Of a stretch of 17,240 nucleotides of DNA, positions 1 to 17,240 are shown piece by piece. The translations under genes and the position numbers were made by a program. Source of the DNA: Takakia lepidozioides (lineage: Eukaryota > Plantae > Bryophyta); the NCBI GenBank assembly GCA_030704615.1, contig JAKLZA010000328.1, forward strand, positions 1 through 17,240, written 5' to 3'. Position 1 is the stretch's first letter. Each line of letters starts with the position of its first letter. The notes under the pieces are model-generated. The model saw only the letters and a list, made by a program, of their open reading frames with translations, was not told where the DNA came from and made no database searches.

Positions 1-281
1 AAGGGAATGGGCATTCCCACAGCTCGGTACAGGATGGTGTCTGACGGGGGAACGTGCCATTCGATTCCGCAACCTCCGTCGTTACCTAGCACGACAATGG
101 TCTCGTCAACCTGTCCAGGAACATCCTTCCTTTCTTCTTCCAAATAAACTGTGCCCGGTTTGAGCTTGAATTTGGAACAAAGGTAAGTTTCAGTCACTCT
201 GCAAAGTCCTCCCTCGTTTGGGATCCAGGCTCTCCCAAGTTGCGGAGGACAGCAAACTATAGCGTAGGAATTCGGAGCCAT
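1..281 (-). CDS. Hypothetical protein, runs off the left edge of the window
   Basis: Manual translation from ATG at 281: MAPNSYAIVCCPPQLGRAWIPNEGGLCRVTETYLCSKFKLKPGTVYLEEERKDVPGQVDETIVVLGNDGGCGIEWHVPPSDTILYRAVGMPIP..., with no stop before position 1. The same frame stays open upstream to ~572, so the start is uncertain. Not in the ORF track, presumably because it is truncated. No family recognised. Confidence 0.5.
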   Translation of the reverse strand, partial: MAPNSYAIVCCPPQLGRAWIPNEGGLCRVTETYLCSKFKLKPGTVYLEEERKDVPGQVDETIVVLGNDGGCGIEWHVPPSDTILYRAVGMPIP

Positions 282-696
282 CGAACACCGCACGGAGTTG
301 GCAAGTGCGAGGTTCAGTATAGCGACAGACCAAGGCTCACAGGCACCATGCGGAGTCCATCGACGATTGGAAGTTGCACATTGAAGTGGAAAGTATTGTT
401 TCAAGCTACATGCATGAAGGTGAGAGGTTTGATTCCATAGCCAGTGAGTATGACAATGATGGCCGATTCGGCGACGAAATAACATCTCCTGACAGTTTCT
501 CCTGAGGGTGGATCCAGCAGTATTCTCGATGCAGACAGGAACGTTCGCACTGACAAGTGCCAGGACAGCTGGTTAAAACAGTCAGACAACCAAGTTGTGC
601 TCATCAAGACTGGCCGCAATTGTGTTGTTTCGGAACAATGCAACCCATTGAGGTTCTAGATTTCCCGTCCCGAGTGATTCTTTCGATTGCTGGTGG

Positions 697-3172
697 ACGG
701 AAATACGGCGCCGCATTTCCGCATTTCCGTATTGCATCTTGGTCATGCACCAGAGCGACGGAAATGCGGCACTGAGTTTCCGTCCGGGGGAAACCTTTAT
801 ACTCTCCAGAACGGAAATGCGGTAACGCATTTCCATCCAGCAAGCACGGTATGTGAAGGTGGAACGGAAATGCGGTACCGCATTTCCGTTCTGATTGAGA
901 ATTATGAACAACGGGAACAGAAATGCGGCACCGCATTTCCGTCCGAGTCGCACTTTTCCGACATTTCAGAACGAAAAAGCGGCGCCGCATTTCCATTTTG
1001 TATCTGATGAATGGAGCTGAGGGATAGAAATGCTGCAGCACATTTCCGTCTTTAAAAGACATTCATACTCTCCAGAACGGAAATGCGGTACCGCATTTTC
1101 ATTCAACAAGCACGGTATGTGAAGGTGGAACGGAAATGCGGTACCGCATTTCCGTTCTGATTGAGATTTACGAACAACGGGAACAGAAATGCGGCACCGC
1201 ATTTCCGTCCGAGTCGCACTTTCGACATTCCAGAACGGAAATGCGGCGCCGCATTTCCATTTTGTATCTGATGAATGGAGCTGAGGGATAGAAATGCTGC
1301 AGCACATTTCCGTCCTTAGAAGACATTCATACTCTCCAGAACGGAAATGCGGTACCGCATTTTCATTCAACAAGCACGGTATGTGAAGGTGGAACGGAAA
1401 TGCGGTACCGCATTTCCGTTCTGATTGAGATTTCGAACAACGGGAACAGAAATACGGCACCGCATTTCCGTCCGAGTCGCACTTTTCGACATTCCAGAAC
1501 GGAAATGCGGCGCCGCATTTCCATTTTGTATCTGATGAATGGAGCTGAAGGATAGAAATGCTTGCAACACATTTCCGTCCTTAAAAGACATTCATACTCT
1601 CCAGAACGGAAATGCGGGTACCGCATTTCATTCAACAAGCACGGTATGTGAAGGGTGGAACGGAAATGCGGTACCGCATTTCCGTTCTGATTGAGATTTA
1701 CGAACAACGGGAACAGGAAATGCGGCACCGCATTTCCGTTCGAGTCGCACTTTTCGACATTCCAGAACGGAAATGCGGCGCCGCATTTCCATTTTGTATC
1801 TGATGAATGGAGCTGAGGGATAGAAATGCTGCAGCACATTTCCATCCTTAAAAGACATTCATACTCTCCAGAACGGAAATGCGGTACCGCATTTTCATTC
1901 AACAAGCACGGTATGTGAAGGTGGAACGGAAATGCGGTACCGCATTTCCGTTCTGATTGAGATTTACGAACAACGGGAACAAAAATGCGGCACCGCATTC
2001 CGTCCGAGTCGCACTTTTCGACATTCCAGAACGGAAATGCGGCGCCGCATTCCATTTTGTATCTGATGCATGGAGCCGAGTGCGATTCCGACAGCTTCAT
2101 ACAGCGCAATTCCGACCGCTTGAGACATTCATACTATCCAGAACGGAAATGCGGCAACGCATTACGTTCTGACTGAAAATCGTGAACCATCTGAACTAAA
2201 ATGCGGCACCGTATTTCCATCCGAGTCGCACCAACCAACATTCCAGAATGACTGAAAATCGTGAACAGTCGGAACTGAAATGCGGCAACGGATTTCCATC
2301 CGAGTCGCACTTCCAACATTCCAGGAACGGAATGTATTAGATTCAAAAGGGAAATGCGGCACCGCATTCCGTTCTGATGAAATATCCTGAAACCTCGGAA
2401 CTGAAATGCGGTACCGCATTTCCGTCGGAGTCGCACCTTCCGACATTCCAAACGGAAATGCGGCGCCCGCATTTCCGTTTTGTATGTGAGGCACGGAGCT
2501 GTGGAACGAAAATGCGGCACGCCATTTCCGCCCGTCAGACGTTAATACTCTACAGAACGGAAATGCGGTACCGCATTTCCATTCTGACTGAAAATCGTGC
2601 GCAACGGGAACAGAAATCCGGCATCGCATTTCCGTTCCAGTCGCACCTTCCGACATTCTAGAACGGAAATGCGGCGCCGCATTTCCGTTTTGTATATTGG
2701 GCCTGGAGCTGTGCTACGAAAATGTGTAGCAGCATTCCATCCATGTGAGACCTTCAAAGTTTCCGGACCGGAAATGCGGGCACCGCATTTCTGTCCAGGT
2801 GAGACCTCTATACTTTCCCGAACGGAAATGTGGCACGGCATTTCCATTCATCATCTAACGGATGTGAAGTGGGAACGGAAATGCGGTACCGCATTTCCGT
2901 TCACATTGAAAATCATGAACCACGGGAATAGAAATGTTGTGCCTCATTCCCGTCCAATCGCACCTTTCGACTTCCAGAACGGAAATGCGGCGCCGCATTC
3001 CCTTTGAATCTCATACTTGGAGTGTGGGACGAAATGCGGCACCGTATTTCCGTTCAACAACTAAGGTATGTGAAGGTGGAACGGAAATGCGGGCCGCATT
3101 TCTTTCCAACAAGTACGGATGTGTAGCTTCGTGATGGTACTTAACGGAAATGCGGCGCGCATTCGCATTTTC
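697..3172. repeat. Tandem array of ~46 palindromes GGAAATGCGGYRCCGCATTTCC at a 53-bp period
   Basis: AAATGC half-site starts at 762, 815, 868, 921, 975, 1028, 1081, 1134, 1187, 1239, 1292, 1345 and onward (52-54 bp steps). Copies continue with more divergence and a few irregular gaps to ~3148. The best copies extend to 28 bp (AACGGAAATGCGGTACCGCATTTCCGTT). Confidence 0.97.
801..2132. repeat. Higher-order repeat: 5 near-identical ~266-bp units, each made of 5 x 53-bp monomers
   Basis: Anchor ACTCTCCAGAACGGAAATGC recurs at 801, 1067, 1331, 1596, 1863 and (ACTATCC variant) 2133. The five different inter-palindrome spacers recur in the same order in each unit. Confidence 0.95.
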
Positions 3173-3512
3173 GCTCCAACTCATCAGACGCTGGGACGGA
3201 AATACCTTGAAAGTGAACCGTGGAGCAACGGAATTGCTGCACATGTCGGCACTCTATCTGACTGAAGGGCATGAGGCGGCGCGGCCTGACCGTTCGATAA
3301 TGATGTTTGTTTTTCGGACGGCAGGCGTACCCTCAACGATTCGAATTTCGTAATGACGCAAACTCCCCGAGGAGACACTTTCGTCCAACCCTTTCGACCC
3401 AAGTGGTGCATCACCGCCGTTTCATCTACTTTTGTAGGTGTCTCCTCAGTCACCCCTCTCGCGCCCTTTCCATCTGCACTCTTTGGCCCTTTTTCCTCTC
3501 TCTGTTCTTCTT

Positions 3513-6500
3513 ATGTCGAACCTGAGAGGGGGGGAGTTCGTGCACCAGCCAGGAGTCGAGGAGCTAGCTGCAGCACGTACACCCACCCGATCCCCCGAGC
3601 GCGGGTATTCCTGCCGGGCCTAGCCCTCTGCGATTCAAAGACGCGTCTTCGAAGGGCAAGTTCAAAGTCCCAGAGACGACTCGCGTTCTTCGGTCATGGA
3701 GAATCGCCAGCAGGGGTCGGGCCCTTCTCCAGCAAAGTCGAAGAAGAAGCAGCCGTCCCTCTACTGGCTTCTGAACCGGCTCAGGCCGATTCACCCCCCC
3801 CAACGCGAATGAAGCAGCAGGGTAGAAGACAGATTCAATTGCAGCAGACACCTTCACAGGCAAGGATGAGGAAGCAGAAGGCGACAGCGAACAAATCTAA
3901 AAACAGCTTCACGAGCTGAAGCTCAGTTCTGGAGGGAGGATTCCCGCCCTTTTGAAGATGTTAGGCCGACTCTGATGCAACGAGGGCAATGGGAGGAATC
4001 GACCGTTGATCTCGATTTGGTACCGGAAGGAGGAGGTGTACCGCTGCACGTTCGAGCAAGACCTCACCACGAATGAGCAAGCAGGCCCGAGGAGGCCCTC
4101 TGCAATGGCAGAGAATTGCCCGCAAACAGGCCCAGGAGTGCAGATCCAGTTGAGGATGCGCCAGCTGCTCAGCCACTACCGGACCCTACAGAATGTCTCC
4201 GGAGGATTTCAAACAGTGCAGCGGATAAAATGTGGAGGAGAACCACAGTAGCATGGCAGAGTTCTGGGGAGCAGGGTATTCCAGCGGACTCTTCGAATCC
4301 CACTCTGTCGCATGGTCTCCCTTCCCATCGTCAGGCAAGACCTTCCCGGAGATGTGGATAAGCTTCGTTTCGCATTTCGAGAAGGGGTACCGTTCGGGAT
4401 CGCAGCGTTTTACGTTTCCATTGAGAATGAGGATGGCGAAACTCGTGGACCCACTGCCGATGAATTGTTCAACGTGGGATACCCACTGGCACACTCGCAA
4501 CCACGAATTCGAGGCGGACGCTGAAGGGTGATCCCGACTTCGGCCATATGTCGGGTTAAAATGTTCTTTGTGTGGGACGGGAATCACCGGACTTCTCGCA
4601 TGGTGGAGTACATCAAGCAGAAACCCTGCCAAGCACATTGGCTGGCATTACATGGTGGAGTGTGTCATCCTCAAGGTGAAGGCGGCAGACTCCTCCCTGC
4701 TCAAGAATGCCATGGCGGACCTCAACTCGTAAGATACTCTTACCCTCCCTAGCACGTTAAAATGCGGTGCCGCATTTCGGTTGCCATTCTGGTTTGTTTC
4801 CGTGCTTCCGTGTACTGAACTGGAGAGTGTGCCTTCGGGTCACTGAAAATGCGTACGTGCAACCCACATGGCACACATGCTGTATAGGGTGAGGAAAATG
4901 TCTCAGTGTACTGATCCGCAGATGGTTGCGGAAAATGCTGGAGCCCGAGCTCATTCAGAAAGCCGTTGCAAAAACAGACCGGACATGGTATCGTCTCACT
5001 ATGGATGGAATGGTGGAGGGATATATGAAGTAGTCGTCCTCCAATTTTCCCTCTGATCACCTTCCCAATTTTCAGTAATGTTTCCACATTGAATCGAATG
5101 TAACGCTTCTGCATGTTTTTGTTGGGCAGTCAAACATCCAAGTTGGATTTGGCCCATGCCAAACGCTTCTTCATGGAAAGTGGGGGCAGGGTCAGGTGCA
5201 AACGTTGCAGTCATTGACTGAGCACTTGAAGGAAGCCGGTGTCAAGTCCAGAACCAAATACAAGTCAAAGCTTGTGAAGCTGGTGGCAATTGCAGGATCT
5301 GGCACTTGAAAGGACTTCATCCCCGAGATTGCAAACACTATTCTCGGGGCCATGCAGCCGACCATGCAATTGGAGAAAACTGCATCACCTCTCAAACGGC
5401 ATGTGTGGAGGCGAAAGAGAAGGTGAGGTTTCAATGCACTGAGAGTTCCTTCCTAGCCAATAGCCACTCTCTTCCAGCTCCGACATTGGATGGAAATGGC
5501 AGACACGGTGGCTGTCGACTGGAATGCATCGAGAGCATAAGGACAATGTGGTCTTTTCCACTCGAAGTTTTCCGACCCTGCAGTGGAGGGGTGGCTCAAC
5601 CGATGACTTGTGGTTCCAGGTAATTCAAGGTACTTTCCCAGATTTGCTTTTCTGAAATGAATTCACTGAAATGCTACGTGAAATTGCAGTTGGGAATCAC
5701 AGTTAATGTCGAATGCCGAAGGAGCGAGTCGAGGCACACAAATTCGTTCGGCTTGTACGTCAAATGGGATGGAACACAGACATTGGAAGATACGTGACAC
5801 GTTTCAGATGTGCGTACAAGCGCAACCTTTTCCGCCAGAGAGCTACGAGACAGCAAGAAGGAGCGTGGAGTTTACACATCAGGAGGGAGCGGGAAAGCTG
5901 CTGCAATGCGAAGTGTTTACAGGTGAAGCACAGCTTGCCTTGTATGCGAAGCCTGGTTACGAGTGGTTGTCTCGGAAAAATGCGGCACCGCATTCGCATT
6001 TTATGTTTTCGGTGTGGCACTCTGCCAGTAGGTGGTCTCAATTTTGCTCACGCATGCTGATGCCTTGCAGGTATATGAAATACGTGCTCCTTCAGACAGG
6101 GGCCCTGGCTCAAGAGCCCCCGTTCTTCATGGCTTGACCGTGGCGGCCCAAGCTGTGTTACACACCCGAGATGCAGAAACAATGGCATCCCGCGCATATC
6201 GTTGGATGCCCGTGGTACCTGGAACCCATTTGTGTTGGCGGTATTGTTACGAGTCTGAGAAAGATCTGCACGCCTTGGCAGAAGAGAAGAGAGAAAGGGA
6301 AAGACGTTGTCCCTGCGGGCCAAAGTCGGCAAAGGAATCTGCTGCTCGGAAGAATCCGGAAAGGCAGCTGAGGATGGCACAAAAAGCGGTGGATGCAGCT
6401 TGCAGGCCCAACAGAGGGGTCGAAAGAAGAGGACTCGCCAGCAAAGCAAGCAGCAGCTGTTGTGACACCCGCCAAAACGAAGAAGAAGCAGAAACGCCTG

Positions 6501-8391
6501 TTCAGGAAGAGGTGAGGAAAGGGACTACGATGGAGACTTTGCAACCAGCACACCCCCCCCAAACGCAGGCTGCCTCCCCTGTGCCCACCGTTGTCAATGA
6601 GAGGCTACGAGAACTGGCTCGGCAAAGACGGCCACTCTTCAACCCCAGGGGGGCACCCTTTCGAGCCGGTGGAAATGAAGAGGCCGAGAAAGTGGCTCCC
6701 GAAACAGTAGTCCAGATGTGTAAATGAGAGTTTTTGGCGGCTTTGGATGGACGGGGCAGCCAAGTTGCATACATGAAGACCATGGAGGGTCTGAAGGGCA
6801 GGACTGAAGAAGGCGACTGCGAGAGCCTTCCGACCACCCGTTCTTTGAGAGGGTGTGTGCAGACAAGGATTGTAGGAGGGGCGGAAATGCCACCGAGTGG
6901 TCTTGCGATATGATCATCTTGGATATTCCGGACGGAGAGCCTGTGGAAGGACTGCAAGCTTTGCCATCTTGGAACAGGTACTCGGAGGACTTTTGGAAAA
7001 AAGGATTCGGGCTTGCCCGCATGGTGTTGGACGACAGAGGCGTGTGGTTGTCCTGGCGAGCAGAGAAAAAAACACTCAGACAGGAATTGCGAAGTGGACC
7101 CGCAAGAGCGCCGTCCCGATTCTGAAAAAGAAGTGGACGTGCATCAACACACTGGGCCTTCGGTCGGAAGGGAAGGAAGAAGGTGATTACGACACTGGCA
7201 CTCGTCCATTCATTTGCTTGGGTGTTTTCAAATGCGGTGCCGCATTCGGTTTCTAATCGTTTTCCCCCTGTGTATGCAGAGACGAAGCAGTTCGATGCAT
7301 ACTGCTTTGTGAAGGAGAACTCCACCTTTGCTTTCCGGAAGGAGGGAGGAAAGGTTGACCCGAACTGCGACCCACTCGATTACGACGTTCTGTTCAACAA
7401 CGTTCCCAAGGAACTTCTCCCTCATAGCCTCACTTCAACGGAAACCCTGCGGTACTCACGGACTCGGAGCCCTGCCTTCATTCAGACAATTATGGAGACA
7501 TGCACAGACGTGGAGGGCACAGTGCTCGACCTCATCTGTGGAACAGGTATGCAGAATCTTGATCTCTGCTGTTCTGCAAATTCTCGTTAGGATGTAGTTC
7601 GCAACATCTGAAGCGCCATGTGGTAATGTGTGGATGGCATTGTAACAGGTGCCTCAATGTGGGCTGGGCGGTTTTCCGACCGGCACCTCTTTGCCTACGA
7701 GGAGGATTCATCCGTGTGGGGATCCCATCTGGAGGGGCTGCAACGGAATGTGAAGGCTCCCGACAGAGCGGAAGTCTCCTCGGATTCGTCGGAGTCCGAG
7801 GAAGACACAGTGGACATTGATGCGGAGGAGAACCCGGAATACGAGTGAGTGCAAACATTGTAAGTTTGCAAAGCCTTCTGGGTCATTTTTGTCAAACGAA
7901 TTTCCCGACTGTGGTTCTCATTAGTCTCGTTGATGATTGTCATGTGCAGGATTGCAGGGTCCGGGTCGAAACATGTAGGGCCTACACTTCCTGCCAGGAA
8001 GAATGTCCCGTTCTTTGCGAGGGCCGATTTCATGACGAGCCCGGTGAGGGACTACTCCCTTCCTAGTTATGCAGCTAAACTCGCAAATACAGCGATTAGA
8101 AGAAGTGAGAATCCCAGTAAAGTAGAGCAGATTTTGGAGAGGGCTAGGGAGGACAGAAGGATAAGGAAAGAGTTGGCAGCAGCTCAGACAGGTAGACGGG
8201 TACGAAAGTACATATGTGATTCAGCGGATGAGAGCGACGCAGACAGGGAGGAAGACGACCCAACGGAGGTGAGATGGACAGTTCCGCAAGGGGAAGATGG
8301 GATTTTCGAAAGCCTGGCCAACGAGCAGTCCGCTGGAGATGAGAGGGCACTGAGGGGGTGGAGGAGAGCAGGACAGTCTAGAACAGGATGA
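3513..8391 (+). CDS. Spliced gene, frameshifted in this copy: ParB/Srx-like N-terminal domain + low-complexity linker + beta-class amino (N6A/N4C) DNA methyltransferase-like domain + acidic tail
   Basis: Frame-hopping translation gives ...IPLCRMVSLPIVRQDLPGDVDKL..F..GYR....AFYVSIENEDGE...KMFFVWDGNHR...WHYMVECVILKVKAADSSLLKNAMADLN, later CDMIILDIPDG...WNRYSEDFWKKGFGLARMVLDDRG...RSPAFIQTIMETCTDVEGTVLDLICGT|GASMWAGRFSDRHLFAYEED. Phase-consistent GT-AG introns at 5923-6070, 7183-7279, 7547-7648 and 7845-7949. Less certain introns at 4729-~4838 (acceptor reads CGG), 5030-5129, 5423-5477 and 5620-5689. Start codon uncertain. Confidence 0.75.
4280..4728 (+). other. ParB/Sulfiredoxin-like domain coding segment
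   Basis: Hydrophobic strand followed by DGNHR (4576-4590) matches the ParB/Srx-fold signature hhhDG.HR. An upstream 'IPL..h......R' segment resembles the ParB N-terminal start. Confidence 0.7.
4760..4777. promoter_or_regulatory. Single palindrome copy inside a predicted intron
   Basis: AAATGCGGTGCCGCATTT within the intron that starts GTAAG at 4729. Confidence 0.75.
5978..5994. promoter_or_regulatory. Single palindrome copy inside a predicted intron
   Basis: AAATGCGGCACCGCATT within intron 5923-6070. Confidence 0.75.
6895..7740 (+). other. Beta-class N6/N4 DNA methyltransferase-like domain coding segment
   Basis: Motif order is IV (DMIILDIPDG, DIPD at 6922-6933, where DPPY/SPPY is expected), then 'ARMVLDDRG' (like RVLKPGG), then motif X-I 'RSPAFIQTIMETCTDVEGTVLDLICGTGASMWAGRFSDRHLFAYEED' (like KP..L...I...T..G..VLDPF.GSG.T..A....R..IG.E.D). 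The 7547-7648 intron splits motif I in phase. Confidence 0.75.
7230..7246. promoter_or_regulatory. Single palindrome copy inside a predicted intron
   Basis: AAATGCGGTGCCGCATT within intron 7183-7279. Confidence 0.75.
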
Positions 8392-8552
8392 GGATTCGGA
8401 TGATTTTCAAGATTAATAGAATTTTAATGAAGTCTCTGTAAATGTAAATTCTCTTCCAGAGTATATAAAGGAAATTCTGCCCGACATTCGTGACCCCTCT
8501 CCAGTGTGCATTCCAGCCACACAATCGCCCAAACCACGACGCTCCCAAAATC

Positions 8553-9287
8553 AGAAATGGGGCACCGCATTTCCAAAACAGGGGAACTCTAAGAACCTCT
8601 TTTCGAAATGCGGCACCGCATTTCCAAAACAGGGGAGGGACTAACTAAATTTTCCATTTCAATGTTGGCATAGTAAAAAGTAATCTGAATTGGAAATGCG
8701 GTGCCGCATTTCCAAAATTCCTTTGTCCACACGCCAGTTTTGGCCTCTCCCGCTCATTGCATGGATGCCACCACGCTTACAGAGGTCGAACAACGAGGTC
8801 GAACAAGGAGGTCGACATGGCGGGATTGAAAATGCGGTGCCGCATTTCAGTATTGGGGATGGTCGTTGTTCGAACTGCAGGCCCATCAGCAAAAAATTGG
8901 CACCGCATTCCATTGTTAAAAAAAGTCGATGACGGACATGGAAATGCGGCGCCGCATTTCCAGAACGGACATCGCAATTTGTCCATTTGCAGACCCTCTC
9001 TCGGAAATGCGGTAACGCATTCCATCGCGCTGGTCGGAAATGTCACACTTTTCGAAGTGTTGTACGGAAATGCGGCACCGCATTCCCTTGTCCAAAAAGA
9101 AGTTTCCATTGCCAAGCTGGAAATGCGTCGCCGCATTTGCAATGCCAACCTCGTTTTCTGATCAATTTATAGACCCGTGTGTGGTATTTCGTGTACCTGG
9201 ACGGAAATGATGCACCGCATTCTTGTCCGACATGGAAATGCGGTGCCGCATTTCGATCCCGACATGGAAATGCGGCGCCGCATTTCG
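8553..9287. repeat. Second cluster of ~12 palindrome copies with mostly unrelated, irregular spacers
   Basis: Half-sites start at about 8555, 8606, 8694, 8830, 8894, 8942, 9005, 9068, 9121, 9205, 9236 and 9268. The last copies form a ~31-32 bp tandem (CCGACATGGAAATGCGGYGCCGCATTTCGAT). Confidence 0.93.
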
Positions 9288-9543
9288 ATGTCCGACATGG
9301 CGTTACTCTGGTATATTCTTGACACATGACTCACATACCGGTTACTCTGCTATATTCATCCGGACAGACACATTGTAGAAATGAGACATCAAATTGTAAA
9401 CAGTGGGCCAATTCCGACAGTTATTCAACACAATGAAACACAATCATACAGAAGTGAGGTACGATGGGTTTATTGATCGGACACGATGTCTCACATTTAC
9501 CAACTGCAGACAAAACTAAGCCCTTCCTCCTTCTACATGGGCT

Positions 9544-10338
9544 TCACCAAGTCGACGGAACTTCGATACCCCTCAAAACAAGCTCATCACTGCTGCGGCA
9601 CCTCGAGGATAACTGCAATTCGGTCGTTCTGCTGCCCTTGCTGGAGCCGACGACAATGTCATGTCCATCAATGATACCACCATCATACATTGACAAGGTC
9701 ACTGTGGGCTCATGTGCCCGTGCGATTCGTCTTCGCAACGCAGCCGAATGTCTCCATACACTGGAAGAGAGAGGGAGTGATCTGCACGTATATAGTTTTC
9801 CCCGGTGCCGTCCTCCCTGGTCCACTTGCAGCAGTTCCAGCGCCAAAGCGAGGCCGTGCGTGATCTATCCGGCATCCCTTTCCAGCTTGGTATATAGACG
9901 AGGCAACAATTTCAGGACCCACGGACCGCATTGACCCTCGCCCTCACCTCGCTCAAAGCGGTAATAGCCCTCCAGATACTCCATTGCGCGCAAAGACTCT
10001 TTGATTCTAGCAGCGTCTGTGAAAACAGAGAGCCAGACAATGATGTCTCCTGATTCTGGTTTGAACATAGCATAATCGTGGCCATGATAAGGGCAGTCGG
10101 CTGGATTTCGGCGGCACGGCATCCTTGAAAAAGAGAGTAGCGGAGTACGCTCAATGACAGCAGCTCCCGGATGGAGGAGGAGCAGCGCGGTGGGGGGTGG
10201 CTGGAAAAAGTTCAAGCTAACGCTTGCAATTTCTCACAAACACTCCAGGGCACATTAAATTTCCCCCCTACAGGATCCTGGACCGATGAAGATTGGCTGC
10301 TGCATGAATGTAGTCCGTTTCAGTTTCCTACCTGCCAT
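9544..10338 (-). CDS. Hypothetical protein A (frameshifted), paralog of 10494-11234
   Basis: Joins ORFs 9865..10215 and 9544..9846: FSRMPCRRNPADCPYHGHDYAMF...GDIIVW...EYLEGYYRFERG...GGRHRGKLYTCRS...SMYDGGIIDGHDIVV...ELVLRGIEV. Start at ATG 10338 is tentative. Confidence 0.65.
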
Positions 10339-10388
10339 GCAAACTATGGGCAGTCACTGCCAGGTGGGCCGATAGCCACTGGACACGA

Positions 10389-10453
10389 CGAAGTCCATCC
10401 CCCTCTTCGATTGTAAATGCGGCGCCGAATTTCCATCGGGGGGATGGACTTCG
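10389..10453. promoter_or_regulatory. Inverted repeat centred on a palindrome copy, between the divergent paralogs
   Basis: CGAAGTCCATCCCCC (10389-10403) and GGGGGATGGACTTCG (10439-10453) form a perfect 15-bp inverted repeat enclosing AAATGCGGCGCCGAATTTCC (10415-10434). Confidence 0.8.
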
Positions 10454-10493
10454 GTGGCAGATCTCAAACTATAACTTGTGATGAGAAAGATAT

Positions 10494-11234
10494 ATGGCTT
10501 CATCCACCGCTGGCGTGATGAACACGTTCCACCTCCGTCGGTGGGTACGGGACCCAGATGCTCCATTATTGGAGGCCGGACTGCTCTTCCGCTTCGTATC
10601 ATTTCCAAAATCTAAGGGCTTCGTAGCTGTCCGCAGGTCATCGGCATCCAAGTCGTCCTCAGGTCCTCCTTTGCAAGGATGCCGTGCTTCCGGAACCGGA
10701 CGACTGCCCCTTTGGAGGCATCGATTATGCAATGTATTCGGCCACATCGGAGACATTGTTATCTGGTACACAGATTACAGAGAAGATACTGGTTCGATTG
10801 TGGAAACATTGGTGGCTTTTGAGTATATCGTAGGCCACTACGCCTTCGAGCGGGGTGACGATCTTGGTTTGAGGAGTCGTGGCTCCTGCGCATCCTCGAT
10901 TCCGATTTTCCCAGCTACGACGGTCACCCATGCAGAAGAAGGCGCACTGCTATGCTGTTGGCGGTGGAACTGGCCACTGAACGTGGGTGGACTCCATCGG
11001 AGAGACCTATTCTCCTCGAGGAGTGCGCTCTCTCTTCTCCATTGTATGGGGACATTCGCATTGGTGTGGACGACGACGAAAACGTGAAGTTCCATATTCG
11101 ATGGTGGTATGATTGAAGGGCAGGACATTGTGGTGAACATCACTAGGGGCGGTACAACGGCTGTTGCAATCGACTTTACATGGAGGAGCCCCAGGACTCA
11201 TGAGCTAGTTCTGAGAGCAGTCGAAGTCCATTGA
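10494..11234 (+). CDS. Hypothetical protein B (frameshifted), paralog of 9544-10338
   Basis: Frame-hopping translation: FARMPCFRN.DDCPFGGIDYAMY...GDIVIW...EYIVGHYAFERG...GGLHRRDLFSSRS...SIFDGGMIEGQDIVVNITRGGTTAVAIDFTWRSPRTHELVLRAVEVH*, with TGA at 11232-11234. Confidence 0.65.
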
Positions 11235-11696: not shown

Positions 11697-11710
11697 AAAT
11701 AGCAGCCCCC

Positions 11711-12400
11711 TGTCACGACCATAGGGAACGGAGAGCAGGACAGGGAACGACTGTGGGGACAACACTGCAAAGGAACATGTCAGTTCACGGACGACGTTAG
11801 TGAGGGAAACGGTTGTTAGAGCCACGGGTAGGAAGATAAAGGAAGAAGCAGGGAATTTTGGGGGAGGATGATGATTCTTGGGGAGCACTTCTGGGTCATG
11901 CATGAGAGGAGATCGGGCGGAGAGCAAAGATGGAGAGCACGGTGAAGGAGGAACGAGGATTAGTAGATGCTTGTTATATGCAAAGCGATAGTGATATCGT
12001 AGAGCAGATTAGAGACACAATGGCTTCGGCCTGATACCTGGTAAATCATAATCTGATACTTATACGATACAATCACAATGTGTAGAGAGATCTGAGTGAA
12101 GCTGTGGAATGAATGGATGAGTTGATGGAATCCAATAGATGATGATGAAGGAAACTGATACTTAATTATCAATGGTAGGTAGCTAACATGAATGCCAAAA
12201 GGGAAACAAATAGGGAACACCCCCATGATACACTAGCTGTAGGTCATGACTGATTGTTCTGCGCGGGCTGAGTTCTTAGAGATTTCCAACTCTTCTATCT
12301 TGGAGTTTCCGCCTCTGATAGCGAAGGGATGGGTGAGTAAAAGCCGCGCGACATTGGCGACCATACTGGGGAACTGAGTCATGAACAACCAGATGTGACA
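11711..12400 (+). repeat. 5' LTR (690 bp)
   Basis: Starts TGTCAC and ends GTGACA (6-bp terminal inverted repeat), followed by a PBS-like sequence and coding sequence. The 3' LTR is outside the window; the predicted TSD would be CCCCC (11706-11710). Confidence 0.8.
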
Positions 12401-12416
12401 GGCATCTGGTGGGATC
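12401..12416 (+). promoter_or_regulatory. Putative primer-binding site
   Basis: GGCATCTGGTGGGATC lies immediately after the LTR. It loosely resembles the complement of a tRNA-Arg 3' end (from memory, not verified) and lacks the T of the canonical TGG. Confidence 0.4.
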
Positions 12417-13695
12417 ATGGTGGTTGGACCATTAAAGAATTGAAGTGAATCAAATTCCCTGTGGAACGAAGGAAGAAAGATTGTCCAAACAATTCTTTCA
12501 AAGGTTCTTGGAATTGCCAGACGGTTGTAAAGAAAATATTCTTAAGCGAGTGCATGATGCTGATCCGGAATGGGGTCTGGAGAAAGGAGTGATAAAGATT
12601 TATCAGGTAGCTGTAGTAGAGGAAGAGCACGTTGGTTACCCACGTTGGTTTATGTGATAGCATTGCTATCCATTAAGCGAGTAGAGTTTGAAGGCTGGGA
12701 AGAAAGAAATAAAGGTGAATGTTTATACTCATATGCATGAAGAGCTTGTACTGGTAAAGAATTGGATTCCAAAGGATATTTTGTGGATCAAACTCACACC
12801 AAGAACAGCTTTTCAGACTTGTTTGCCATATGGTTATATGGTAACGGAGACTTCAAGTATAGCCAAGGGTGCATTGAAGCTTGAAAGAAACCCAGGCATA
12901 TACGAGAGATTACAGAAGAGAGTTTTGGTTATTGCCACATTAAAAGAAATGAAAGACATGGGACATGAGTGATGAAAGAGAAGCTAGACGCCAGAGATAT
13001 TCAGCAAAAAGAGAGAAGCTATCTGAAAGCTAATTATCCATATCTTTGGGAGAGAGGAATAGACATAGGGGAATCATCTGGACCTCTCACACCATTAAGA
13101 TCACAGAGTACATCACCCATACGGAAGAAACTAGAGTTGGATGCCATTCCTTCTGTTTTCTTCGCAAGAAGATTATAAGGGAATTGGTACGAGAAGAAGA
13201 TCAATCACGAGGTGAAGGTGAAAGATCTGAGGTACATCCCTGGATAAAAGATTTGACAGAAATCTTTGATAAGAGTTGGCATGGAACACCAAAATCAGGA
13301 ACTCCAGTTTCTGAAGCGGAAGGTGAAGAAGGAGAAGAGGATGTGGCAGAGCCAACGGAGAGTTCAGACTCTCCAACACCATTACAGTTGAGTTACATGA
13401 GTGAAGAAGAAACCCAAGGGCAGAACTTGGAGGATGAAAACAGAGAGAAGAAATTGGAAGAGGAAGAATATGAAGAAGTAGACCCAACAGCTGAGGTTGA
13501 GACTACAACCAGGACATCCCAACCCGTTGGACCTGGATCAAGTGGAGCACTTGGATCACAGGCCAACGAAGGTGTGGTCGGCTCAGGGGGATCAGGCGGG
13601 CTGCTGGATCTGGCTCTAGGGGGACAGGGAGTGTGGGGGAAGTAGTGCAACTGAAGCTGGGAATACTATGAATATCGTGGGGCCGGAAGCAGGGA
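12417..13695 (+). CDS. Extra 5' ORF or long N-terminal extension of Gag (frameshifted)
   Basis: Abutting plus-strand ORFs 12445..12657, 12688..12972, 12969..13178 and 13046..13645 have protein-like composition, ending in an acidic/Gly-Ser linker. Confidence 0.55.
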
Positions 13696-15100
13696 GTGCT
13701 CAAGGGCCACCACTTGGTGGAAGATCCACCACAAAACAACAGGTCCAGAAGGACCAGCACCAGCAAGGGGGTGCCAGTACCTGTCAGTGGGCAGAAGGTA
13801 GGGCCACAGATGGCGTTACAACCAACACGGGCAAAACCACCCTTTCCAATATATTCAGGAAAACGGGATCCCGATGTACACATTAGCCAATTTGAGCACA
13901 TGTGTATAGTGAACAATGAGAATGGCGATGATGCCAAGATGAGATTGTTTCCTTGTTCACTTATCAAGAAAGCAAGTGAATGGTATGCAAGATTCCCTGA
14001 TAATCATTTCCTAACCTGGAATGGCTTGAATACAACATTTCGAAATAGGTTTAGGACAAGTAAAAACTGAAGATGAAGTGTATGGAAGTTTACACAGTTA
14101 AAGCAAAAGAAGCATGAAACTGTTGAGGAGTATATGGAAAAGATGGAATTGATGATGAAAAAGCTGGCTGCAGTACCGCACCGGGTTACAGAAGACTTGG
14201 TTTGTGAGTGGACTAAGACCTGAGTTGCAAAAGAAAGTGGATATGTTACCCCATAATACAGTGGAGGAGGCATTTGAAACTGCAAACAGGATTGAGCAAT
14301 TGGGAATGCTCAGGAGAGAGAAAAATGATGATGAGGACTCTGAGGATGAGTCAGATGAAGAAGAAGAGCAAGAACTAAAAAGGAAGAGTAAGAGAAAGGG
14401 AAGTTGAAGAGGGATAACTATGAAAAAATATTGGAAGAAATCTTGAAGAAGAAGTATGCCACAGAGGCTGCAACACATTGGAGGAAGGGTGTATGGTGTG
14501 CAAAGTGCCAGAATGAAGGCCATACCACCACAGAATGCCACGTGAAGAAGGAAGAAACACTGTACTATCTGTAAAATGGATAACCATTCTACTGAGAATT
14601 GTTACTACAACAGAAGGACAGCTACAAGAGAACTAGGCAAGTAAGGGTGCGCATCAGGTGCAGCCCCAGCCAAGAAGAAACAATGATCAGGACCACTATG
14701 GTAGGTCTGGTGGTTATAACAATGGCATGGAATGGAGAGGTAATTCAAGAGGGAATTACCAAGGAAATTCCAGAGGCAACTATCAGGGTAATCCAAGGGG
14801 GAATTACCAGCCCGCCGGGAATCAGGATTACAGAAATAATCCAAGAACAGACCAAGGGCGAGGACCCAATGGTGAAGAACTATGTTACTATTGTAATCAG
14901 CCAGGACATCGCAGGGCAGCCTGTTCATTCTGGATAAGACACCAGAATGAGATGAGAGCTCCTGTGAATGAGGGCCCAGTGGTGGCAGCTCACATGGTTA
15001 GGCCATGTGTTGTACCAGAAGTAAGTACAATGATAGTAACAAGAAGTAAAGCCAAAACTAATACCTCCAGTAGTAGAAGAAGAAGATGATGATGAAGGTG
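13696..15100 (+). CDS. gag: Gag: retrotransposon capsid domain plus three CCHC zinc knuckles (frameshifted)
   Basis: PFPIYSGKRDPDVHISQFE...RLFPCSLIKKASEWY...TWNGLNTTFRNRF. CX2CX4HX4C at 14497-14538, 14561-14602 and 14883-14924. GNSRGNYQ x3 repeat near 14739-14810. Confidence 0.88.
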
Positions 15101-15489
15101 GCAATGATATGCCTGAAGATGAAGAGAGACTTGGAAAGATGAGAAGGAACTGCACAAGGACAGTGGCAGATACTATAAGGGAAATGCAGAAGAGTACTGA
15201 TATTCATGTGGCAGATTCCTCTGATTCTGATGGAGAAGAAGAAGGGAGTGAGGAAGAAAGGAAGAAAAGAAGATGCAGACATGCAAAGTAATGAAGAGAC
15301 TTTGGCTGGAAGTAATATGCCAGACCAAAGCAGAAATTACCATTGGACAGTTATTAACAGTGGCACCTTATTGTAGGCATAGGCTGTATCAAGCAATCAA
15401 TCGAATTGCCCAGGAGACAGGAAACACAGACCTGAACAGCAAGGTGACCAGTTATAATGTGAAGCCGGAAGGGCGAGAAACAGTCATGG

Positions 15490-15900
15490 ACTTTGATGAT
15501 TCTATGCCAGTAATCCAATTGAGAATTGGGAGCACAGAACTAACTGATGTACTGATAGATGGAGGTTCTGGAGTAGTAAATATCATGACAGACCAATTAA
15601 GGAAGAAGCTTGGTCTAAGTAACATTGAAACCAGCCCCATTTACAGTAACAATGGCAGATCAAAGAAGTGTACAACCATTGGGATAATAAGAGAATTAAG
15701 ATAAGATAAAGAAGATGATCTTTATGATCACAGTAACTGTGTTGAAAATGGATGAAGTCATGGAGGCTTACTCCTTAATATTTGGACGTCCGTGGCTGAA
15801 ACAGGCCAGGGTATTCCATGACTGGAATTCTAGTTACTAACCGTGCATAATGGGATACACGAGATACAAATTACCACAAAGAAATCTAGTAGATTACCTG
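15490..15900 (+). CDS. pol: Aspartic protease domain (frameshifted)
   Basis: DVLIDGGSGVVNIM catalytic motif, and downstream YSLIFGRPWLKQARVFHDW flap/C-terminal motif. Confidence 0.88.
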
Positions 15901-16229
15901 CTACAAGAAGACCTCGAGGAGTCGAGAGAGAGTATGACTGGAAAGGACGATGGATGAGGACTGGAGGAGGAAGCAGGAGAGCTACCCTATTTGCTGCACA
16001 CCAGAGTGGGAGCAGGTTGCAGAGATTGCGGCTAAGGAAAGTCTAAGTGTTTGAGAGATATCTGCTGTGGTGTAGTGACAGCAACACCAACTGAAGAGGA
16101 AACTAGCATTTACCCATCACATTTCTATGAAGAAAGAGAAGAGAATAGAAATCCTAGAAGAACCAGCCACTGTGAGCTTACAGGATGAAGTGGGTGACTG
16201 GTTGGACAATCACAGCTGATGAGCAAGTG

Positions 16230-17240
16230 AGGGAAGTGAATGTGGGAACTAAAGAGGAACCGAGGATGGTGAAAGTAGGAGCTGATTTGGAGCCGGAGTT
16301 TTTGAGAAGCTAAAAGCTTGTTCATCAAATACAGAGATGTATTTGCTTGGAGCTATGAGGATATAAAAGGGATACCACCTGAAGTCTGTCAGCATAAGAT
16401 TGAATTGGAACCAGGGTCAGTACCAATCAAGCAGGCGAGGTACAGAATGAATCCCAACTACGCACAGAAGGTTGGAGGAGAAGAGATTAAGAAGTTGGCT
16501 GAGGCTAAGTTTATATACCCAATAGAGTATACAACTTGGTTGTCACCCATTGTGATAGTTCCCAAGAAGAATGGTAAACTAAGAGTATGTGTGAACTACA
16601 AGAAGCTGAATGCTTGTATGAAGAAAGATCCTTCCCTTTGCCATTCACAGAAGCAATAGATTAGACACTGTGGCAGGCCATGAGATGTACTCATTCATGG
16701 ATGGCTTCAGTGGTTATAATCAAGTGCAAGTGGCGAGAAGACCAAGGGGAAAACAGCTTTCATCACAGACTGGGGGGCTTATGCATACAAAGTCATGCCC
16801 TTTGGACTTTGTAATGCACCAGCGACCTTTCAGAGAGTGATATGGATCTTTTCATGAGTATCTGGATGATTCATGCAGGTATTCTTGGATGATTTCAGTG
16901 TGTACAGCTCTAAGAATGAGCACTTGCATAAATTGGAGTTAGTTATGTCTGGCCAGATGCAGGATGAGAGGTCTGGGCTGATGAATCCAGAGAAGTGTAC
17001 TTCTGTTGTGAACTCAGGGGTGCTTCTGGACACATGGTGGTAAGAGGGGGATTCTTGTGGATACCAGAAAGACAGAGTCCTTAAAGCATCTCCACCACCA
17101 GTGAATGTTAAAAGTCTAAGGAGATTCCTGGGCCAACCAGTAGGAGTGATCTACAGAAAAAGATTGTCAAAAAGGAAATGCCAAATAGCAGCACCATTGA
17201 CGCATACTCACTGAAAGAGAAAGGATGCAAGTGTTGACTG
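16230..17240 (+). CDS. pol: Reverse transcriptase (frameshifted; truncated by window end)
   Basis: [47 protein letters not shown], and FLDD at 16882-16893. Confidence 0.93.

Follow-up and report, generated by a model that had tools for sequence, protein, structure and literature searches.

A Probable Beta-Class Methyltransferase Domain Lacking the Motif IV Aromatic in a High-Copy Plant Repeat, and Its Possible Role in Element Anti-Silencing

The Locus and Its Gene

The DNA analysed here, called the window, is a stretch of 17,240 nucleotides from the bryophyte Takakia lepidozioides (assembly GCA_030704615.1, contig JAKLZA010000328.1). It carries a plus-strand gene that ends in a methyltransferase-like domain, palindrome arrays on both sides of this gene and parts of two further genes (Table 1).

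Table 1. Features annotated in the window.
Feature	Position	Strand	Remarks
Start of divergent gene running off the window	1..620	-	Place where relatives have the transposase
Upstream array	696..3200	.	53-bp units, each with the CG-rich palindrome; 37 copies
N-terminal exon, same gene	4273..4728	+	ParB/sulfiredoxin-like, FFVWDGNHR (DGNHR 4576-4590); several frameshifts in window copy
Gene middle	4729..6840	+	Several small exons and introns, K/E-rich linker; layout inferred from L006
Methyltransferase exon A	6841..7182	+	Motif IV, P-x-W-N, helix and strands; frame-breaking indels behind 7041 and at 7171
Intron	7183..7279	+	97 nt, GT..AG, phase 0, one palindrome copy (7229)
Methyltransferase exon B	7280..7546	+	Strand resembling motif VIII, motif X region with its His replaced, motif I first half VLDLICGT
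Intron	7547..7648	+	102 nt, phase 1, GT..AG; splits motif I (G-T|G) and contains three in-frame stops
Methyltransferase exon C	7649..7844	+	Motif I remainder, LFAYEED with the motif II acid, acidic tail
Probable intron (7845-7949) and last exon	7845..8390	+	From sequence; short motif common to 6 related loci
Downstream palindrome cluster	8548..9300	.	10 copies
Broken gene converging on the methyltransferase gene	9450..11200	-	One palindrome copy (10414), CpG o/e 0.85

As read from sequence, the methyltransferase domain forms the C-terminus of a protein of about 1,000 residues with a ParB-type DGNHR motif at its N-terminus. In the intact relative L006, splicing out eight GT-AG introns yields a stop-free frame of 969 residues that contains both domains, and both introns of the window domain recur there at identical position and phase. 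Where a locus group extends 3 kb or more past the downstream side of the N-terminal exon (25 groups), the methyltransferase domain follows in 18 and is lacking in 7. The intron inside motif I is read through or truncating in the protein models P0009-P0011 and P0013. Two sequencing runs guessed to be RNA gave two contigs each, none of them joined across an intron. The first-pass annotation described the domain without this larger context, that of the C-terminal part of a large ParB-like protein on a high-copy repeat.

The upstream array has a 264-bp higher-order repeat at 799-2080, and two palindrome copies (4759 and 5977) lie in non-coding parts of the gene middle. The converging minus-strand gene is probably part of the same element, since it holds a palindrome copy and has the CpG ratio given in Table 1. 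Neither this gene nor the divergent gene at the window's edge matched the other, any of 80 related loci or Pfam.

Motifs of the Methyltransferase Domain

Motif IV reads D-I-P-D-G at 6922-6936 (DIPD at 6922-6933), preceded by the strand DMIIL, and is followed in the same exon by a conserved P-x-W-N (6964-6975). Motif X-I (7471-7546) and motif II, LFAYEED (7687-7707), come after it; a domain with DIPD as its motif IV, in the beta-class order that had been claimed, is thus present. One motif IV-like pattern is present in the six reading frames taken together, where 200 mononucleotide shuffles contain 0.005 on average, and the motif IV and motif I patterns occurred together in none of the 200, both patterns having been composed after the sequence was seen. 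The introns had been said to interrupt the domain in phase: both are GT-AG introns and one does fall inside motif I, whereas the exons as assembled do not join in phase, owing to indels.

On its own the window copy was not recognised by profiles. No methyltransferase profile matched its pieces or its read-through in a Pfam scan, the read-through had no match in a PDB search, and two single exons had none in word-based protein searches. The assignment to the methyltransferases therefore comes from relatives. The lack of an N6_N4_Mtase match, which had been named as grounds for rejecting the domain, thus holds literally for the window copy, where it is due only to divergence and frameshifts. The SPPY/TSPPY motif of N4CMT and MpDN4MT1-type enzymes was looked for in the window and its relatives and is absent from both.

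Read-Level Support for DIPD

Public contigs reveal that the domain in the window contains three indels, one behind 7041 and the others at 7171 and 7278, and that about 21 bases are missing near 6833-6839; at the indel sites, the window copy is broken or mis-read. DIPD itself is not a read error, despite these frame-breaking indels elsewhere in the copy. It is kept in short-read contigs of independent runs from three studies, and DPPY, which would have overturned the claim, did not appear at the places located in them. In run X2, where 3,117 contigs cover 901 bases, no G>T change reaches 5% at any place, and the two G>T places of run X3 are both outside DIPD. Contig 19 of run X6 covers 6664-6977 with no differing letter. 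In X7, a single contig differs at 6928, with Ser in place of Pro. One further G>T place in X1, two in X6 and two in X7 were counted without their location. In run X8, from another organism, the contigs do not cover the domain.

It would still be conceivable that DIPD arose by sequencing error or private mutation in a DPPY gene, or that the sequence is bacterial contamination, and the abundance of small indels in the window, together with the missing Pfam matches of its pieces, would suit such an origin. We consider it very improbable: beyond the agreement of the three studies, none of the 18 readable family motifs is canonical, the spliceosomal introns are conserved, and a pattern scan of GTDB and IMG/VR recovered no prokaryotic or viral relative of the N-terminal exon. 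The earlier view of an old, eukaryote-adapted gene is upheld by the intron positions shared with L006, which is only about 23% identical over the domain, and by a fern homolog.

Fold and Erosion of the Family

At the family level, homology to the beta-class enzymes of PF01555 extends across the domain. The family profile A3 matched M1.HpyAVI in the PDB (5hfj, 5hek; E 7.5e-5) with DPPY opposite its own motif; the match to M.RsrI was weak (E 0.07). An hhalign comparison of eight plant rows with six phage beta-class enzymes gave a probability of 97.1 over 208 columns with a score of 77.7, where 30 column shuffles reached no more than 21.8, and 22 of 30 ESM Atlas hits carried PF01555 (score 0.93). 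Single members reached E 0.012-0.13 against the Pfam methyltransferase, short of Pfam's cut-off; a PHROGs search returned only weak methyltransferase rows (E 0.11-0.32), and tblastn of P0011 against phages and plasmids found no match. Taken together, a beta-class amino-methyltransferase fold is supported by sequence comparison. The top row of the protein search, the repetitive fish protein P0008, was dropped as spurious, leaving six of seven matches. An AF2 model of P0014 reached a pLDDT of 37 on a shallow alignment, too low for judging the SAM pocket.

The aromatic fourth residue of motif IV, which stacks the target base (PMC4738411; PMC10406627), is found in none of the 18 readable motifs, namely those of the window, 14 metagenome locus groups and three proteins, one of them from the fern Adiantum (EIPD, DMPT and DFPT in the three proteins); 13 of the 14 locus-group motifs are from decayed copies, perhaps of few hosts, so that about five are independent and intact. 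The supposed absence of a base-stacking residue at this position is hence a family trait. DIP[DE]G is not strictly conserved; what persists is D-hydrophobic-P-x, with x being D, E, T and others, and one member has Glu first. The helix ahead of motif IV is missing in the family. The SAM pocket retains S/T-G in motif I as well as the acid of motif II, while the motif X His (replaced in all members), the Phe and the motif III region are changed; the first Gly of motif I is replaced in L006, P0009 and P0011. Since the family has no motif IV aromatic, the protein likely no longer methylates, and the domain is likely catalytically dead. As a counterpoint, Asp-x-Pro, S/T-G, the motif II acid and a nearby Trp are kept, as they would be in an active enzyme.

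The same residues might belong to an active amino-methyltransferase with a remodelled pocket, in which base stacking would fall to the conserved Trp behind motif IV or to some other aromatic, and 4mC or 6mA placed on the palindromes would block or counter host 5mC. The P-x-W-N motif is conserved in the window, L006, P0011 and P0012; in RlmJ a Trp replaces the motif IV Tyr, which shows that another aromatic can substitute; horizontally acquired N4C enzymes are active in rotifers and a liverwort; and the CpG retention described below would fit. Against activity, the fourth position has not settled on any one new residue, the catalytic Asp is Glu in one member, there is erosion at the motif X His, in motif III and at the first Gly of motif I, and the eukaryotic enzymes shown to be active (rotifer, liverwort) all keep SPPY. 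We regard an active enzyme as unlikely, if conceivable.

Decay could also have gone further, with the N-terminal and middle parts doing all the work and the methyltransferase domain being a slowly decaying relic or acting on RNA or protein with no relation to the palindromes. Identity among members is only about 21-34%, a ParB-like exon is not seen in P0014, the Adiantum model, and a downstream domain is missing from the seven locus groups mentioned above. The core strands, P-x-W-N, R-G-P-x-E and two intron positions nevertheless persist across this deep divergence, and of the nine listed exon sites with variation among copies, seven are synonymous, so a mere passenger role appears distinctly improbable.

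The N-Terminal Domain and the Question of Descent

A GxxR-type P motif, DGNHR, occurs in the window and its intact relatives, and the ParB label of the N-terminus is a motif-level assignment. The AF2 model of this part (pLDDT 56, shallow alignment) places a strand (171-174) and then a helix (180-191) around the P motif. In hhalign, only 16 motif columns match, and the profile similarity is gone once the motif is masked. The domain had no match in Pfam, NCBIfam or the PDB, and four fold searches with the pLDDT-56 model gave no meaningful match (human sulfiredoxin at rank 40, E 3.6).

Phage ParB-CTPase/N6_N4 fusions share with the plant proteins a GxxR N-terminus and a beta-class methylase C-terminus (bioRxiv 10.1101/2025.10.10.680097; L086, L100). 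They differ in keeping DPPF/DPPY and in their length of about 510-550 residues, whereas the plant N-terminal domain has a 45-residue insert. We infer descent from a phage or prophage fusion of this kind. Two of them, L086 and L100, looked by eye like specific ancestors, which statistics did not support: L086 ranked 9 of 113 motif-selected viral frames, and rank 3 with an E of 0.75 after masking. The relatives found for L086 and L100 are too few for a deep profile.

If land-plant DNA transposons had domesticated such a fusion whole, it would act as a nucleotide-gated sliding clamp that loads at parS-like palindromes evolved by the element itself, spreads along the element, and blocks or erases host CG methylation by means of its pseudo-methyltransferase. 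A bacterial-centromere mechanism would then serve a eukaryotic element against silencing; we hold this to be unlikely.

Mobile Element Context

The sequence is highly repeated, with one run giving 14,993 contigs on 2.5 kb of the element, and the family reaches at least a fern (Adiantum) and other land plants. A DDE transposase with CxxH and a SWIM finger is the signature of MULE elements, whose insertions also have a 9-11 bp target-site duplication. In 8 of the 23 locus groups that are at least 10 kb long, the seed locus among them, the opposite strand encodes a protein with D..D..CxxH and SWIM-like motifs, these motifs being read in decayed neighbours and the count having no background control. 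This transposase-like protein has no Pfam match and is absent from the window. The MULE label thus rests on motifs, and the element is likely a MULE-type DNA transposon of land plants. A literature search found no published description of the family.

Palindromes and CpG Retention

The window contains 51 copies of a CG-rich palindrome, in arrays and in introns, with none in the neighbouring gypsy element and none seen in an assigned exon. Its core positions are 82-100% conserved (two central ones 65-67%) against 31-53% in distal flanks; some of this conservation stems from the search pattern itself. Upstream of the same exon, L008 and L049 have tandem palindromes of their own, of 20 and 26 bp respectively; a scan of 32 locus groups showed palindrome arrays in 2, most of the others being decayed. 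A family-specific motif in tandem in non-coding DNA, introns included, is the VANC-like layout, and it is found in the window, L008 and L049.

The gene has a CpG observed/expected ratio of 0.75, the arrays have 1.39 and 1.14, and gypsy has 0.31. The element keeps its CpGs and the neighbouring gypsy has lost them, in this one comparison of element with gypsy. The same retention could be seen in a young or recently imported element, or result from self-deposited 4mC.

The subterminal repeats of En/Spm are bound by its TnpA, and palindrome binding might likewise pair or organise element ends or steer insertion, with no part in methylation control. The arrays on both sides of the gene and the divergent transposase-like gene linked to it in relatives are in line with such an accessory to transposition, as are the ParB-fold clamps reported to organise DNA around palindromic sites (bioRxiv 2025.10.10.680097). 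An accessory would leave the CpG retention unexplained, and single copies deep in introns (4759, 5977 and 7229) follow the VANC pattern rather than one confined to ends; its chances seem small. The palindromes could also be bound by the transposase, or by the product of either of the two flanking genes in Table 1.

A Possible Anti-Silencing Function

Our preferred reading, a tentative one that could well prove wrong, is a pseudo-methyltransferase carried by a MULE-type element and predicted to bind the element's own palindromes, averting methylation and silencing as VANC does. Methyl transfer would have been lost and the Rossmann scaffold retained for DNA contact, dimerisation or cofactor binding. 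The palindrome would be the putative binding site, each subfamily evolving its own, and occupancy, possibly spread by a ParB-like clamp step, would shield CG sites or recruit host demethylation, as VANC does for VANDAL elements.

VANC is likewise transposon cargo, with a family-specific short motif in tandem in introns and intergenic DNA (PMC5735166). Its target is a 9-mer in one orientation, whereas that of the window family would be a CG-rich palindrome of 20-26 bp, known from sequence. No VANC-type Pfam match was found on window pieces, relatives or L006 exons. If the proteins do bind their own palindromes, sequence-specific anti-silencing would have evolved in a second way unrelated to VANC, and its target would be short and defined. 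Should the ParB-like domain prove to work as a clamp, a ParB-type switch would operate on eukaryotic chromatin and offer a mechanism by which one protein protects an element many kilobases long. If the enzyme is instead active, amino-methyltransferase chemistry would be wider, and plant genomes would have an added source of 4mC or 6mA.

Comparison With Known Methyltransferases

With the beta-class enzymes (PF01555; M1.HpyAVI 5hek/5hfj, M.RsrI 1eg2) the window family shares the same permuted order IV...X-I-II and homology over about 208 columns. It differs from them by the missing motif IV aromatic, the eroded motifs III, X and I and the spliceosomal introns, and its domain sits behind about 700 further residues, with no restriction partner.

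Eukaryotic bacterial-type N6/N4 methylases are rare, and the published cases named here are active with the motif intact; the window family is a widespread, repeat-borne one with the motif degenerated and the fold kept. Transposons that have co-opted a DNA methylase are known, among them retrotransposons carrying DAM, of prokaryote type (bioRxiv 10.64898/2026.05.21.726589), and DNMT (PMC5890265). They are retroelements with the NPP pocket kept, whereas the window family belongs to a different enzyme class and likely to a DNA transposon; DAM-LTRs are reported to be absent from streptophytes (bioRxiv 10.64898/2026.05.21.726589). Bdelloid N4CMT (PMC8885841, PMC10406627) and Marchantia DN4MT1 (bioRxiv 10.1101/2021.02.12.428880) are, like the window family, beta-class bacterial enzymes naturalised in a eukaryote. 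Those are active host genes that have retained SPPY/TSPPY and deposit 4mC, in contrast to the repeat-borne, motif-degenerate window family, with which rotifer N4CMT has in common the possession of introns.

Gene structure of the family

The methyltransferase domain terminates the large protein of a highly repeated element with its own palindrome arrays, and this context is the larger finding. A search with the exon of the N-terminal domain confirmed 84 metagenome loci; the 80 retrieved fall into 46 non-redundant groups, some with plant-type genes in their flanks, as judged by eye, and no relative was confirmed in IMG/VR or GTDB. Among the 25 groups that extend 3 kb or more beyond this exon on its downstream side, 18 have the methyltransferase there. 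In the intact relative L006, splicing of eight GT-AG introns yields a single stop-free frame of 969 residues, with that N-terminal domain at its start and the methyltransferase at its end, and the two methyltransferase introns match those of the window in position and phase.

Motifs IV and X-I and the introns seen in the first-pass annotation were located, as was motif II, and both introns have GT..AG ends (Table). The motif-IV pattern, defined post hoc, occurs once in the window against a mean of 0.005 in 200 shuffles. Small indels are abundant throughout the window; comparison with contigs from public sequencing runs placed three of them in the domain, one behind 7041 and the others at 7171 and 7278, and showed that about 21 bases are absent near 6835. 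The introns do have phases 0 and 1, one inside motif I, but because of these indels and missing bases the window copy is not spliceable in phase as written, and its domain is a 252-residue read-through once X is placed at the frame breaks.

Table. Positions of the features in the window and in related or phage loci (prefixed L)
Feature	Position	Strand	Remarks
N-terminal domain with FFVWDGNHR	4273-4728	+	strand of methyltransferase, upstream of it
Motif IV, D-I-P-D-G	6922-6936	+	codons read after strand DMIIL
Intron, phase 0	7183-7279	+	GT..AG ends
Motif X-I	7471-7546	+	3' of motif IV
Intron, phase 1, within motif I	7547-7648	+	GT..AG ends, three in-frame stops
Motif II	7649-7707	+	3' of motif X-I
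Five-unit higher-order repeat, 264 bp, of 53-bp units	799-2080		96% identity
Broken gene flanking array	1-620	-	CpG content high, like element
Broken gene flanking array	9450-11200	-	CpG content high, like element
Ty3/gypsy-type LTR retrotransposon	11710-17240		gag, zinc knuckle, protease, reverse transcriptase motifs by eye
Decayed transposase-like gene	L078:419-3300	-	N-terminal Cys/His-rich region, D..D..CxxH core, SWIM-like end
Subfamily-specific tandem palindromes	L008:1437-2452		75- and 127-bp periods
Subfamily-specific tandem palindromes	L049:1147-2372		105- and 182-bp periods
Phage fusion	L086:514-2157		ParB, weak HTH and intact beta-class methylase in one chain
Phage fusion	L100:701-2224		ParB, weak HTH and intact beta-class methylase in one chain

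Fold and origin

The amino-methyltransferase fold had been named correctly. Pieces of the window matched no Pfam family and single relatives matched PF01555 weakly (E 0.012-0.13); a 20-row family profile found the beta-class enzyme M1.HpyAVI (E 7.5e-5), with the family motif aligned on DPPY. Profile-profile comparison with six phage beta-class enzymes gave 97.1% over 208 columns (score 77.7; at most 21.8 in 30 column shuffles), and PF01555 stood in 22 of 30 ESM Atlas matches, at 0.93. Searched against the full protein library, the read-through retrieved seven proteins, six of them relatives, one from the fern Adiantum nelumboides; the seventh was a spurious repeat.

In the ParB-CTPase fold the P motif is GxxR, to which the DGNHR of the N-terminal domain corresponds. 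Phages commonly encode fusions of ParB with an N6_N4 methylase (bioRxiv 2025.10.10.680097); neither 'plant' nor 'transpos' occurs in the main text of that study. A motif scan of viral contigs recovered two such fusions, L086 and L100, of about 510-550 residues, with DPPF and DPPY. For the plant domain no significant similarity was demonstrable beyond the motif, nor did family, PDB and fold searches give informative results; a ParB-like nature and phage descent are no more than plausible.

Motif IV and the SAM pocket

At motif IV, intact-looking members read DIPD (window), DIPE (L006), EIPD, DMPT and DFPT, and 13 decayed locus groups read DMLG, DVPR, DILG, DMLK, DVIG, NVPK, DVLG (twice), DIPI, NVPE, DLLD, DVIG and NLLE. 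Of DIP[DE]G, proposed for checking as a family signature, the DIP[DE] part stands in the window and L006 but not in the others; Tyr, Phe or Trp at the fourth position is found in none of the 18. In the decayed loci, e.g., L066, L030, L054 and L024, CpG and CHG are both depleted (observed/expected 0.21-0.45) and Leu frequently takes the place of the motif Pro, both changes being what deamination of methylcytosine in silenced copies would produce.

The SAM side appears partly eroded: another residue stands for the His of motif X, three members have Ser where motif I should begin its Gly series, and the family lacks the helix N-terminal to motif IV. Motif I keeps its S/T-G, and motif II its acid. 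The motif-IV aromatic of solved enzymes stacks on the base (PMC4738411; PMC10406627), and activity is abolished when both outer motif residues are replaced (PMC5100572; PMC8885841), these being double mutants that do not isolate the aromatic. The domain would have lost catalysis and become a pseudo-enzyme. Because a different Trp takes over in RlmJ (PMC3814359), and P-x-W-N is conserved 3' of motif IV in the family, an active enzyme with an altered pocket is conceivable, albeit unlikely.

The first-pass annotation had allowed that accurate reads might show DPPY. Contigs from 8 of 15 listed runs were compared with the window, and the indels leave the motif unchanged. Among the 3,117 contigs of X2 no G>T place reaches 5%, the two G>T places of X3 lie outside the motif, X6 contig 19 covers 6664-6977 with zero substitutions, and the single counted G>T of a diverged X14 contig, which shows 21 differences over 6919-7040, is at 6984. 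For X1, X6 and X7 together, five G>T places have no position among the rows listed, and one X7 contig changes Pro to Ser. The non-canonical motif is characteristic of the family, and an artefact is very improbable. The 14,993 X1 contigs on 2.5 kb suggest many diverged copies, contig depth not being copy number. Among the sites listed, 7 of 9 copy-to-copy variable exon sites are synonymous; at five more sites nearly all copies differ from the window.

The published survey of eukaryotic amino-methylases (2015) lists other clades, gives MT-A70 enzymes for Physcomitrella and Selaginella in the passages concerned, and lacks DGNHR in its supplement. Marchantia and rotifer enzymes keep (T)SPPY, whereas the family lacks a canonical motif; DAM-carrying retrotransposons keep their pocket, and DAM-LTRs are reported absent from streptophytes (bioRxiv 10.64898/2026.05.21.726589). 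The passages and listings searched in the literature hold no description of the family.

The element and its palindromes

The element is probably MULE-type. A decayed D..D..CxxH protein with a SWIM-like finger, the combination that marks MULEs, is encoded on the opposite strand in 8 of 23 locus groups of at least 10 kb (seed included, no background control) and in one shorter group; in seven groups it is upstream and divergent. A Pfam search of these proteins did not confirm MULE identity, the gene of L078 and its relatives (L021, L030, L033, L035, L054, L066, L070, L074) match no Pfam family, and the window has no such protein. That the methyltransferase-bearing protein is a transposition accessory is a minor possibility.

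Of the 51 copies of the 20-base CG-rich palindrome in the window, 37 lie upstream within 53-bp units and 10 downstream; three more stand in non-coding stretches of the gene and one in the right-hand gene, whereas the gypsy element has none. The high identity of the 264-bp repeat is a sign of recent amplification. Among 32 groups scanned, two (L008 and L049) have their own tandem palindromes upstream of the N-terminal exon, each with a same-strand upstream gene; L008 and the window share an 8-base palindrome core. The two broken genes flanking the arrays, either of whose products could be the palindrome binder, have zero matches in Pfam or among the 80 loci.

CpG is retained in the gene (observed/expected 0.75) and in the arrays (1.39 and 1.14), against 0.31 for the gypsy element alongside; the ratio is 0.66-0.82 in five intact-looking relatives, 0.45 in L049 and 0.23-0.45 in five decayed ones. 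The most likely reading, held tentatively, makes the protein a DNA-binding pseudo-methyltransferase, which would recognise the palindrome of its element and shield the element from CG methylation. A passenger domain is quite improbable. The protein would bind the palindromes, may behave as a clamp on DNA, and when bound would protect against CG methylation. VANC proteins strip methylation from their own elements, to which they bind at family-specific motifs that have multiplied in introns and intergenic repeats (PMC5735166).

The gypsy element starts with TG at about 11710 and carries frameshifts throughout; its CpG is strongly depleted (0.31) and its CHG is not (1.34).
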